A stretch of 64,000 nucleotides of DNA from Mizuhopecten yessoensis (Eukaryota), in contig NW_018403780.1 of the NCBI RefSeq assembly GCF_002113885.1, positions 12,438 through 76,437 on the forward strand. Direction: 5' to 3'. Shown here in pieces: positions 21,229 through 50,400 of this stretch (the stretch's first letter is position 1; each line of letters begins with the position of its first letter). Made by a program: the position numbers and the translations under genes. Below the pieces are notes generated by a model. That model was not told the origin of the DNA. It saw only the letters and a list, made by a program, of their open reading frames with translations, and ran no database searches.

Positions 21229-21414
21229 TTCCGTCTTTGCGTATTGCAGAGTTATCTTCTCTTGGGAGCAGGTATTGATTGTTACGTCACTTGTTTGTGA
21301 GAGTAAAGTCATCAACTTTTGAGAAAACGACGTAATTTTCTCACCCAAACCAATGACGTAACAATCAATACCTGCTCCAAAGAGAAGATAACTCTGCAAT
21401 ACGCAAAGACGGAA
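21229..21414. mobile_element. Fold-back MITE with ~60-bp near-perfect inverted arms
   Basis: TTCCGTCTTTGCGTATTGCAGAGTTATCTTCTCTTGGGAGCAGGTATTGATTGTTACGTCA versus its reverse complement ending at 21414. A one-arm copy lies at ~38270-38349. Confidence 0.85.
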
Positions 21415-21619
21415 TTAGGCGACTATAGTGCAATACCTGTAGAACATTTTGGTACGTCATCTGTGTAATGGACACCTAGAAACTATAATTCCATTTGAAT
21501 AATTTCCATTTTCTTTCCTTTATCTCCCTTTTTCGACACCAACGCTTAATTAAAACGTGTTTTGTTAAACAAAAAATATAACATTTAAGATAAGACAAGA
21601 AGCTTGAGGTCTTTTTTTG

Positions 21620-22017
21620 AATAGATGATATAGCGACCAGTGGAACTCTTCAAATAGGAAGGGGTTAAACTGTACTCGCTGGGGCAACGGACAACATGGC
21701 AGCGCCAAAACATTCAGATACGAATTTCCACGAACTTCCATGTAATGAATTGGGTGATATTTTAAAGTCAAAAGGTATCACCTACTCCAAATAAGACAAT
21801 TGGGGAGCTAGTACACCTATGGTAGCAAGCAGACATGTTAAATTGGCCAGATATTGAAAAACGGGCCAAAGCTAAAGCGTCACAGCTGTGACGGACCGTC
21901 AGCGGCGTACAGAGTATCGTGTGTTACCTTTGAGTAAATGAAACGTCAGAAGGCTTGTTTTGGACAAACAATTTGATTGGAATGTCATCACTAAATGCAT
22001 TTGATATGACCTCTATT
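21620..22017 (+). mobile_element. Internally deleted DNA-transposon relic with SAP-like N-terminal coding remnant
   Basis: Short terminal inverted ends AATAGA...TCTATT. ATG 21696 gives MAAPKHSDTNFHELPCNELGDILKSKGITYS, then by frameshift NKTIGELVHLW*QADMLNWP, a SAP-like pattern. Confidence 0.4.
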
Positions 22018-22079
22018 CTTGTGAATTATTTTTATTGGTTCAATACAGTGAGGTGGGGCATATTGTTTACACATGGCAG

Positions 22080-23390
22080 GGGTCTCACTAATTTGCGCCA
22101 TAGGAGATTTAGCGCCATAGGTGCGCCATAGGAGTTTTTGCACGCCATAGCAAAATTTAAGTGTTTTATCCACGAAATATTTCGATTTTTCCATTGGTAT
22201 ACTCATTAAACATGTTTTGGTAAAGTATCATTTAACAAAAAATGTGTACTTTGTTAGAAAATCGATCTTGATTACGAAGCACTTTACACTAATTTGCGCC
22301 ATACGTGTTTTTTAACGCCATAGCTAAATATAAGAATTATTTTCAGCAAATAACTGTGTTTTTCCTTTGGTGTATGCAATGAACAGGTTGTGGTAAAGTT
22401 TCATTCTTAAAAAATGTTTATTTTGTTAGGAAATCGACAAAATATTTCATCGCGATTCAGAAGTCAATTTCAAGGGAAGTAACTCGTACATTTGCAAAAT
22501 ACGCCATATGTCTAGTGAATAAGACATGACTAGTACTTGAGAGGAAAAAAGAGAATTTATTTATGCATGTAAACATGGAATAAATTACAATTTAAAATAG
22601 TTAGACATGAACAAATTTTATATTAATTTTAGAATTTATTTAGAAAAGTTTATTTATTACATCTACTTAAATATCAATCACAGAAACATTAAAGAGAATA
22701 ACACATTTTTAAATATTATTAATATACATTAATGTTATTTAATGAACAGATTGATTAATAACATATGTACAACACAATTATAATCTTTATTGAATTCACC
22801 AATTATACATCTAAATCTACACAGAACATTGGAATACAGAACACATCCACAGTCTATCTAATAGTCACACACTTAAAGTACACAGGTTTGAAAACATTGT
22901 CTCTATTACCACTGGCTGCAATGTTCCCATCGTCAAGGCGGTACAGTTTCATCCCAGCTCGTAGGTACTTCGGTACATCTAGGGTAATGATGTCCTAGTA
23001 CTTGTCTCTAAATACTATTTGGGTTAGGCACTCTCTTCGTTTGTGGGTTTTTAACTCTACTGTATTTTTAAATCTTAAATCTATATCTCCATTTTCTTCA
23101 ATATAGAATCTCAAATAAAAAAAAACTCCAATTGATAGCTGCAATTCCTTCATTATAATCTTTTCATACATTTCATAACTTTCTTATTTATAATTGATTA
23201 ATGATGACCAACTGATGATGTTTTACCCCCGTATCCTCGCATTCTCTCGCGAGACTTGTGCATTTTCCAGCAAGAACTCTTCGAAGGGGAGTAACTCGTG
23301 GATGGTCGCGATAACACCTATTCTCTTCCATTATTGACACCAATCGCCAAAATTAGATTTTAGCGTGTTAAAACCCCGCCATACAGACCC
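22080..23390. mobile_element. Non-autonomous DNA-transposon-like element with repeated CGCCATA motifs
   Basis: GGGTCT (22080) and AGACCC (23385-23390) form short inverted ends. CGCCATA recurs at least 7 times, mostly in the left ~430 bp. AAGGG(A/G)AGTAACTCGT occurs at ~22472 and ~23285. Boundaries are uncertain. Confidence 0.5.
22854..23111 (-). pseudogene. Tpt1/KptA (RNA 2'-phosphotransferase, TRPT1-like) C-terminal relic
   Basis: Single frame RFYIEENGDIDLRFKNTVELKTHKRRECLTQIVFRDKY*DIITLDVPKYLRAGMKLYRLDDGNIAASGNRDNVFKPVYFKCVTIR*. The last 46 aa fit the eukaryotic Tpt1 C-terminal pattern (I.IDv.kal..Gi.Fy.s.NgViL..Gn..g.i.P.yF..v). AATAAA follows on the minus strand near 22790. Confidence 0.6.
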
Positions 23391-47407: not shown

Positions 47408-50400
47408 CTGGGAATAGAACAAAGTACAAAATCATTTCTACATGATGTTAATTGCACATTTTCAATTACATTGACGTCACCAGTATGTTAAAATTACTGT
47501 TACTCGAACGGTTGTTCTCATTTTGTTTTCAATAAATAGGTTACAACACAAGGTTTCCAGACGTGCATGTTGGTAAAGACTATGGACAAGTCGCATTACG
47601 CGTCTGAGAGCGTAAGGATATGTCATATGTATATCGCACGCAGTTTGCCTCTGACTGCCAAATAGCAGCATTTTGTTTTTACTTTAAACATGAAACATAT
47701 ATTTCCTAAATAAAAAATTGTTAACCGGTGCTTCGACAAAAATTTAACTGAAACTAAACTCAATGAATATGATGCTTTTCACCGTGTTTGTCATTAAAAC
47801 ACGGTGAGGTCATATCTAAACCAGCATGCGCTGTGACCTACTTATATTTTAATGACCAATATCTTTAAATATCTTCTACTTATCCTACATAATTTAAATC
47901 TCCAATCCGAACAAATAACAGTTTTTACACAAACGGTTTTCTGAAAGAAGATGTCAAACAAAACATTACATCCTACCCTCTCTTACTTTAAATCCCGCCT
48001 CGGTATGACGGATTAGGATATGTTTTGATAGAATATGTTGTACTTGTAACTGTTATATTGTAGTTTGAACCTTGTTAGGCACGGTATTACTGAACAACTT
48101 GCTTAATGTATAATTAAATCCTTTTGTGGTTAAAACCTATACATTTACAACGTGATAAACGACATTATAGGGGTTCTCCCCATGCTGTATTTCTACATAT
48201 GGTGTGGAACATTTATCTGGTTACTCCGGGTTAAAACTTAATTGCAGAAATTATAACATCAAGTGCAATAATAGCTGTGTGAATTTGTGCTATTTGCTAC
48301 ATCATTAATACATAATTACTATTTGATACATGACGAGTTATCAAAATCATATTCTAAATGGGAGCATTCTTTTACAACGGGTAAAAGCAATATAAAACTG
48401 GTTTAATTGTTCACAAAGGTTCTTTAAGCCATATTTAAGTGATACATTTAAACTTATGATTAGATTTAAAAAAATAAAAAGATTTACAACATTTTTAAAT
48501 CTGTTGACAGAATTAATTCGACTATACTTATTAAGTAGTTCGATATCAAATATATAGGTAGTACATATTACAAAGTAGATTCATCTGCCACACTTATTAT
48601 TATATCCTGGGGTATAACACATTAAATTGTAAATTGGATTTTTATTCTTTGACCTAAGCTACCACTGCAGATTACCGATGAGATGGTCACGTGGTGCAGT
48701 GAATGTTTGGTTTAGTTCATGAAATTTCTCATTTATTAATGGAATCGTTTTTTGGAGCGTTTTTTTGTAGTGATCATTAATTTTCATTCTAGTGAGTTAA
48801 TATTTCTAACTCACTGTAATATATAATGTTAAAGGTACACAGCATAGCATTCTGTTGACAGATTTATGAGTCAAATTGATCAATTGTATTGATTAATGTA
48901 TTAGTTCATGTATGCGTTAATCATATTGATTGTATATCTATGTACTGTAAACACGCTTTAGAGTAGCTTATTCTAGCTAGATAGGGCGCAGTATCAAATG
49001 TTGTATATTTATTTATTTGTATTTATTCTTTATTATCTTCAGGTATATTCCTGAAAATGTTTTTAGGGGTTGTGGAACAGTCCAATTCAGCACAGCACCT
49101 TATATTTAGTTTTATTCAAATGGTTTTACATTTACTTTCGTAGTTCTTGACCTCTAATGAAATAAGTTTGCTAAGTCATAATCAAAACGCCTATGTTACT
49201 AAGTCAGCCGTGATGAAGTAATTGACACGTGATATCTGATGAAACAATTTCACATGAGTCGTAACTATCTATCACAAGTAATACATCGGTTAGTTACAAA
49301 TTATCATAAGTCCGTAGTAAGCATGGTACATGTATATTGCAAGCATATATTGCATTTACTTACATAGAGAATGAATATCTAATGAAACCATATTGATGAA
49401 ACATTTACCGTAACCATATATCATCAATTCTATATTGTTAGTTACACGTTATCATTAGTCCTTAATGAGCATTTAACATTCATATTACATGTTAAAGGAC
49501 ATTTATTTACATATGTAATGAACATCTTATGAAACAATTTTACACTAGCCCTTACTATATGTCGCAAGTAATATATTACTAATTTCATGTTGTCATTAGT
49601 CCTTAATGAGCTTTTTACATTCATATTACACGTATAATGCGATAACTAAAATAGCTAATAAATATGTAATGAAACCATGTAACTATAAGTAGAGTTCTCA
49701 CAATGGGGTCCCCTGACCACTGATTTAAGTCAATTTAAGGGTGCTGATTGAAATGAGCTGGGATGAACCTCGTGAAAATGTGGGCTAACTCGGCCAGACG
49801 CAAAAATTCAAAATGGCCGCCACCCGTCGTCTTGTATATAAAAAAATACACATCTTTGCTTCTAAAAAAATCTTTTTTAAATTTCAGTGCCTGACGTTGG
49901 CTCGGAGTATCTCATTGATGTGTCGTAATTCATAAAAAGACAAGGAAGATCAATATTCATGTCAATAACACTCGTAAAATTGAATGTTTAGCTAGAACAA
50001 ACACGGTACTGAGTGATCATAAAAAATTCTACCGAAAATCAATAATTCATCGACATTTTATAAGGAGCGATATATATCGTTCACGTTCCTTGGTTATGTG
50101 GGTCACCATTGCTTTGTATACGTGTCTAGTTCTGTTTATAATGTATAAAAACGAAACCTCAATTGGTTCAATCAGGATGTGTTTATAATGAGGAAAGGCG
50201 AGTTCTACAGCACTGTAACACCGAGTCAATCAGTTAATTGATTCGCATTCGCATTAAAGCTGCATTGCAACTACCTAAACCTACAAAAGTCAGGTGTTAG
50301 TAAGGAGACAAACATTATAGCATCTTTGATACTGTGACGTCATATCATGTCCAATGCCTAGTTTTTCATGCAAAGTCGAAGATAGTTTATCAGATTACGC

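Follow-up and report, generated by a model that had tools for sequence, protein, structure and literature searches.

A Mutator-like element remnant in a scallop genome and its fuller relatives that carry a Tpt1/KptA gene beside the transposase

Enzymes of the Tpt1/TRPT1/KptA family (PF01885) share a two-lobe fold, a tetrad made up of Arg-His-Arg-Arg, and the HGT and GL-x-x-M-x-R motifs. According to PMC6182162, animals ligate tRNA without a 2'-phosphate and some Tpt1 enzymes cap the 5'-phosphates of RNA or DNA, capping being weak or absent in others, including human TRPT1 on DNA; what Tpt1 does in animals, where tRNA splicing does not need it, is an open question in that source. Human TRPT1 caps RNA, and the capped RNA resists XRN1 and is not translated (PMC9458441). 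Selfish elements are known to carry the gene as well: the viral KptA of sawfly nucleopolyhedroviruses, Bodo saltans virus, a Botrylloides nidovirus, and jumbo phages resembles the gene described here in being cargo of a compact 180-AA form, but here a cut-and-paste transposon is the carrier, neither a ligase nor a 2H partner is seen, and the two do not group in a tree.

The carrier belongs with the Mutator-like DNA transposons (MULEs), with which it shares long terminal inverted repeats (TIRs, >100 bp), 8-9-bp target-site duplications (TSDs; the MULE class is 8-10 bp), and a D-D-C(2)H-W-E transposase. PHD and OTU domains are listed for other MULE groups, and MULEs with extra ORFs are known (PMC6446971). 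The nearest described MULEs, judged by domains and termini only, are Rehavkus (PHD finger), the MuDR-6_HM group (OTU), and Aedes Muta1, whose motif GGGTCTACCC begins with GGGTCT as do the termini of our element. Unlike described MULEs, the scallop elements carry Tpt1 and SGNH genes. Whole accessory genes beside a transposase, apparently swapped between lineages, are also found in VANDAL MULEs (VANC) and in fungal DNA transposons (TET/JBP; PMC12730594), but those act on DNA methylation whereas the Tpt1 cargo is a predicted NAD+-dependent nucleic-acid phosphate transferase. In the Dupeyron 2019 survey, Tpt1 and SGNH terms are absent from the supplements examined and "phosphotransferase" from the main text, and the main text of a bivalve TE survey (PMC10294476) contains neither "phosphotransferase" nor "SGNH". 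Among the openly available papers listed for Tpt1 or SGNH together with transposons, none describes a eukaryotic transposon with such a cargo, and a database note, in Repbase or Dfam, may exist.

Within the window (the whole 64,000-nucleotide stretch analysed), positions 22080-23220 are a dead MULE remnant of 1141 bp, in which the left inverted repeat and the 3'-terminal 45 codons of a Tpt1/KptA gene survive (Table 1). The left TIR is 93% identical to the left repeats of three fuller copies (C5443, C4497, and C3910) and 89-95% identical to their right repeats, with inverted homology to the latter extending to 22590, and it contains a 120-bp unit duplicated at a spacing of 173 bp. This DNA is repeated in the genome, with 52 matches to 22700-23200 and at least 76 to the first 221 bases of the element (40 of 103 candidates scored). 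The putative left TSD copy was assigned from five of five intact copies of the interrupted host repeat, which continue across the site into the sequence that resumes on the right; the right-hand segment of that host repeat has matches at no fewer than 39 other places (40 scored of 70 candidates).

Table 1. Features of the remnant and its flanks, in window coordinates
Feature	Position	Strand	Remarks
Left TSD copy CATGGCAG, putative	22072..22079	+	right copy deleted
Left TIR, MULE family A, ~450 bp	22080..22536	+	CGCCATA subterminal motifs
Tpt1 3' UTR	22603..22853	-	AATAAA at 22791-22786; 92% to C5443 copy
Tpt1/KptA residues 133-177 and stop	22854..22992	-	all four catalytic residues gone with deletion
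Non-coding DNA from immediately 5' of transposase start codon	22993..23189	+	85% to L021, L025
Short piece from 3' of transposase	23190..23220	+	90% to C76676 copy L024:5872-5902
Host high-copy repeat, outside MULE	23219..23322	+	resumes after deletion of the element's right part
AGACCC hexamer	23385..23390	+	outside element; chance occurrence

Three deletions account for the window copy, two common to a non-autonomous subfamily and one private. The first took away the 5' three-quarters of Tpt1, so that codon 133 now abuts the DNA that precedes the transposase start; this junction, at 22992/22993, is present in all five sister derivatives checked. The second removed the transposase and is marked by the short piece that ends the element, as seen in seven sister copies, while the private deletion took the SGNH gene, the right repeat, and the right TSD. 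Since the first two junctions are common to sister copies, the derivative itself must have spread.

A sequence-only reading had proposed that the element arose by deletion from a member of a DNA transposon family, without naming a superfamily; this stands, the family is multi-copy, and the superfamily is MULE. The minus-strand Tpt1 peptide it described lies at 22994-22857 with its stop at 22856-22854, the upstream TAG (22997-22995) and the AATAAA are where it had placed them, and the repeated CGCCATA it pointed to amounts to eight motifs within 22080-23390. The catalytic Arg and His residues, described as not visible in this copy, are indeed absent, as only residues 133-177 are left. Of the GGGTCT/AGACCC ends it proposed, GGGTCT at 22080 is the true terminus, and begins 11 of 27 terminus matches (loci L001-L030), but AGACCC is not the right end: sister-copy homology stops at 23220 in each of the seven printed copies that reach that point, genuine right ends read CGGTCACACTAATTTGCGCCATAG, and the interrupted host repeat has already resumed at 23219. 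The upstream peptide beginning RFYIEENG, which had been read together with the Tpt1 piece, does not belong to Tpt1: it is an antisense reading of the non-coding stretch ahead of the transposase start, is frameshifted in a fuller copy, and was joined to Tpt1 by the deletion. Read-through of the TAG into Tpt1 was likewise rejected, the position being TGG in five of five sister derivatives checked.

Fuller copies define what we call family A. Two-ended copies are 1.1-5.7 kb long with inverted repeats of ~450 bp, the left terminus starting GGGTCTCACTAATTTGCGCCATAG. Assembled from several copies, the gene order is TIR, Tpt1 (minus), a PHD finger, OTU-like, and MULE transposase gene (plus), an SGNH/GDSL hydrolase (plus), and TIR, with Tpt1 and the transposase head-to-head. 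In C5443, a whole Tpt1 ORF and fragments of the MULE domain lie inside one TIR pair and TSD. Read from the flanks, six of the eight two-ended copies are bordered by a TSD, which measures 8 bp in five of them (one mismatch in two of these) and 9 bp in one, and no clear TSD was found in the other two. In all four runs, the empty site of the C4497 copy is represented by reads from which exactly 3696 bases are missing, 8 letters being shared; the flank of that copy is itself repeated, so these reads may stem from other copies of the flank. The transposases of families A and B show the motifs DRTF, TDEE, CTRH, and W-KNNNCES (a DDE pattern with C(2)H and a W before the E), and the MULE domain PF10551 scores 27.6 bits in family A, at the cut-off, and 23 bits in family B, below it; by profile the PHD finger was matched and the OTU domain weakly so. 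No intact transposase or autonomous element was present among the copies found, the transposases of which are all broken or cut by gaps, the search giving a lower bound. The earlier reading had advised looking for longer copies with an intact Tpt1 ORF plus a transposase; the intact Tpt1 ORF was found, with the accompanying transposase seen in broken form only.

The identity of the cargo rests on the full sister ORF, P0001, which is intronless and 177 AA long and to whose residues 132-177 the 46-AA window piece is 91% identical. It scores 81.6 bits (E 9e-23) against PF01885, far over the cut-off of 26, and matches 10 solved Tpt1 sequences, and its structural model (pLDDT 88.7) superimposes on mouse and human TRPT1 with TM scores of 0.84-0.85 (E 1e-12). 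The window peptides had no significant match of their own against Pfam and PDB, the 46-AA piece matching no Pfam family and reaching human TRPT1 at E 0.78 only. The Tpt1/KptA assignment made from that fragment, for which a profile match had been named in advance as the check, thus holds through the full ORF, which passes PF01885, and not through the fragment itself. The tetrad of P0001 is R13, H14, R54, and R114; R13, H14, K52, and R54 align with R17, H18, K63, and R65 of Thermococcus KptA, and H94, T96, R114, and H118 with its H98, T100, R118, and H122, the importance of the Lys and His residues being taken from PMC12678800. Of 29 genomic rows, 10 keep the whole tetrad, the majority of these being broken at other places, and only C5443 combines it with an unbroken ORF. 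Compared with other family members, the cargo is intronless, multi-copy, located in transposons, and a clade of its own, and the S-x-N-x-V stretch is altered, reading L-[DNPQ]-[DN]-G in the families of this genome. This late stretch of the NAD+ lobe and the eukaryotic loop that precedes it are both altered, the cargo lacking the GxPG...VISGMR loop of eukaryotic TRPT1 and having a short loop as in viral and prokaryotic forms. Longer or fused Tpt1 forms were not found among 7992 candidates, an absence that weighs little, and two matches (L148 and L149) were discarded as spurious. Two tandem Tpt1 domains occur in the protist and fungal proteins P0035, P0036, P0039, P0042, P0043, and P0047.

At least 55 Tpt1-like matches in the genome fall into several groups. 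The family B element C3762 is 13.6 kb long with a 564-bp TIR, CGGTCAC/GGGTCAC termini, and an exact 8-bp TSD, ATAAATGA (one of one B copy checked). Its layout corresponds to that of family A, one arm bearing SGNH and Tpt1 and the opposite arm the transposase, and C5461 matches it in TIRs and layout. The family B Tpt1 proteins score 76.8 and 74.2 bits against PF01885 (cut-off 26), the two full ORFs each lacking one tetrad residue. Family D (C1165) has a head-to-head Tpt1/transposase layout like that of family A, and a search for its TIR found none. Group C consists of SGNH and Tpt1 cassettes, many of them clustered on C76745, for which TIRs and ends were also sought and not found; a 247-bp inverted repeat around these copies proved to be an unrelated high-copy insertion. 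Transposase identity is 60% between A and B and 35-37% to D, and Tpt1 identity is ~40% for A-B and A-D and 59% for B-D. The Tpt1 and transposase trees disagree, reported as ((A,B),D) versus (A,(B,D)), which suggests that the cargo moved between lineages, provided that the genes assigned to D belong to one element.

No Tpt1 was present in the 20-30 kb covered at each of at least five related SGNH-bearing MULE loci, so Tpt1 is dispensable for transposition. These SGNH-but-no-Tpt1 MULEs are C2607, C4093, C5594, C76676:285000-304800, and C2179 (loci L115-L116, L120, L127, L159-L160, and L165-L168), four of them with PHD-OTU, and SGNH seems to be the older cargo. The SGNH/GDSL hydrolase has a weak match to the OSK domain of Oskar. 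The cluster at C76745:445100-561700 (L078-L082, L130-L134, and L147) holds at least seven Tpt1 and at least nine SGNH remnants in both orientations over ~110 kb, a transposon graveyard and possibly a piRNA cluster. At L090:277-2331 there is a 685-AA ORF for a DDE_Tnp_4 and SWIM transposase of another DNA transposon family, the start of which recurs in C4672 and C2442; the frame is open in more than one place.

In a tree of 175 sequences, from which near-identical cluster members were omitted and in which the cargo group had been chosen beforehand by search score, 32 cargo rows formed one clade (SH-aLRT 99). The host TRPT1, located at C5586, is interrupted by GT-AG introns and was placed with oyster TRPT1, and the cargo fell outside the host TRPT1 group in both trees; when bacterial, phage, and baculovirus rows were included, the cargo clade lay on the eukaryote-virus side, outside canonical TRPT1. 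A grouping with bivalve TRPT1 was not rejected by the AU test (p-AU 0.35). The sequence-only reading had foreseen a divergent, intron-poor Tpt1 gene distinct from host TRPT1 and tied to the flanking repeat, and what we found is an intronless, multi-copy, repeat-linked gene forming a separate clade, neither single-copy nor nested with the host gene. A processed pseudogene of host TRPT1 was rejected on the number of matches, the separate clade, and omega below 1, although an ancient host origin is not rejected, and a Pack-MULE with a recently captured host fragment was rejected because the gene is whole, the elements bear transposases, and the cargo is distant from host TRPT1. Further intron-bearing TRPT1 paralogues with altered motifs lie at L092 (C2225) and L093 (C5343). 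Named relatives occur in Pecten maximus (86% identical to A), Ylistrum balloti, and Pinctada imbricata; in ENA, relatives are clustered on several long contigs, with 7-8 members to a cluster, and the nearest Atlas cluster is mostly Mollusca. Pattern scans of metagenome and viral contigs for relatives confirmed 0 of 64 and 0 of 21 stretches. The P0048 cluster of P. maximus comprises eleven named Tpt1 proteins of 163-185 AA (~17 accessions), encoded on contigs that measure 12-30 kb. It has the look of a tandem array formed by one very divergent clade member, to which the M. yessoensis genome has no close copy.

The comparison of copies by dN/dS that had been proposed gave omega below 1 on shared changes. 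By simple counting with a kappa of 2.5 and no CpG term, and excluding codons that differ at more than one base, we scored 10 synonymous and 6 non-synonymous changes shared by at least two of the 13 family A copies (omega 0.23; p 0.004 for departure from neutrality), the private changes being 19 and 30 (omega 0.60, p 0.06); the contrast between the two classes had a Fisher p of 0.15, or 0.06 without chimeric copies. In the six copies of group C, shared changes were 29 and 5 (omega 0.07) with a private omega of 0.35, and private changes in family B had an omega of 0.26. Pairwise omega was below 1 in nearly all pairs with at least 60 codons and dS below 1.5; one pair reached 1.24 and one 0.91. 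Shared changes show purifying selection, with omega ~0.2, a pattern that fits selection while the element is mobile and decay after insertion.

The Tpt1 ORF and its 3' UTR were covered by raw RNA reads in four of four runs (14, 86, 34, and 15 reads per 1.7-1.9 Gb read), mainly in one orientation in three of them, with reads almost absent upstream of the ORF and the depth on the sister copy stopping ~75 nt beyond the stop codon. Expression was judged from these four runs, with X1, of presumed RNA origin, set aside. R54H was present in 24 of 29 reads at codon 54 and R65C in 32 of 34 at codon 65, which identifies a defective C4497-like copy with a broken active site; transcription is low-level and mostly of that copy. 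A GT-AG splice joint was found in the reads, and both joints seen enter 17 bases past the Tpt1 ATG, bypassing this first ATG and leaving Met8 in frame. The splice sites are L021:2744, L021:5204, and L025:5482, with one donor inside the right TIR and one inside an insert.

Based on these data, we read the window element as a MULE remnant whose fuller copies hold Tpt1 beside the transposase, and the encoded enzyme as one that likely ADP-ribosylates 5'-phosphate ends, most likely of cut RNA, with a probability of about 0.6 for this reading as a whole. In an active element, Tpt1 would transfer ADP-ribose from NAD+ onto such ends; because no 2'-phosphate junction arises when animals join tRNA, and because the scallop already possesses a TRPT1, 5'-phosphate capping is the reaction that would be left. 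Slicer products bear 5'-phosphates that are needed downstream in piRNA and RNAi silencing. Capped RNA resists XRN1, and the silencing steps that depend on a 5'-phosphate would make poor use of it, so Tpt1 is predicted to be an accessory gene directed against silencing, comparable to VANC or TET/JBP, one that would help the transposon past host defences; piRNAs are reportedly widespread in molluscs (PMC6128900). The broader proposal that bivalve Mutator transposons keep and swap Tpt1 as a counter-defence, capping sliced transposon RNA and piRNA precursors and so blocking decay and small-RNA amplification, is speculative and somewhat unlikely. Given a selected enzyme, we would place a little under half of the weight on RNA 5'-phosphates as substrate, somewhat under a third on transposon or donor DNA ends, about one part in seven on RNA 2'-phosphate repair, and a tenth on anything else. 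The same cargo could act on DNA, capping the 5'-phosphates of the excised element or the donor break and keeping exonucleases or end-joining at bay until the element integrates. Tpt1 enzymes from archaea, and some from bacteria and fungi, do cap 5'-phosphate DNA, for which end protection has been proposed (PMC6182162), and excision of MULEs proceeds through double-strand breaks, the flanks forming hairpins (PMC5499845), which would leave 5'-phosphates on the element; we nevertheless regard DNA-end protection as unlikely, as human TRPT1, among the two closest solved folds, is inactive on DNA (PMC6182162), sister MULEs lack Tpt1, and, for the little that this weighs, the 7992 candidates included no Tpt1-transposase fusion. 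Canonical 2'-phosphotransfer, serving to mend RNA that host nucleases have attacked, the role put forward for viral KptA, would agree with the retained tetrad, Lys, and HGT, with the short loop common to the cargo and viral or prokaryotic forms, and with the presence of KptA in sawfly baculoviruses and giant viruses as well as in some RNA viruses and jumbo phages (PMC9503650), but no RNA ligase or 2H gene was found among the ORFs scanned from these elements and the host already has intron-bearing TRPT1 genes, which makes such repair improbable. We would thus rank RNA end capping as counter-silencing ahead of DNA-end protection, and the latter ahead of virus-like RNA repair.

The remaining alternatives concern whether the element uses the gene at all. 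The selection signal might come from a domesticated host paralogue captured repeatedly by transposons, as the disagreement between the Tpt1 and transposase trees, the group C cassettes without clear ends, and the eleven near-identical named proteins of Pecten on their short contigs would allow; against this, the selected changes of family A separate subfamilies that all lie within TIRs, and none of the 55 or more matches is an intact clade member that occurs in single copy and lies outside an element, so that we consider this origin highly improbable. Almost no weight is left for a host TRPT1 retrocopy captured once and carried neutrally in the manner of a Pack-MULE. Host-gene capture is known for MULEs, the gene is intronless, most copies are broken, and the AU result allows a place with bivalve TRPT1, but families only 40% identical keep the full frame, the active-site columns, and the position of the gene, the cargo stays outside the host group, and the omega below 1 on shared changes largely refutes neutral carriage.

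With a Tpt1 clade that cut-and-paste transposons keep under selection, RNA and DNA end capping could be compared on a small enzyme (177 AA) in a defined context, and the few accessory genes known from transposons gain a further enzyme class. Several genes annotated as "probable RNA 2'-phosphotransferase" in a scallop genome are transposon cargo. If the counter-defence reading were true, this would be the first transposon-encoded anti-silencing factor with an ADP-ribosyltransferase fold and a natural pointer to the role of TRPT1 capping in animals.

Around the remnant, the window contains a high-copy repeat of 500-600 bp at ~21600-22079 and 23219-23322, copies of which are 92-96% alike with a sharp 3' end, and a MITE-like 79-bp inverted repeat at 21229-21414 (92% complementary, 28-bp loop). 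Farther along, an open frame of 351 codons on the minus strand at 46379-47431 resembles a host exon.
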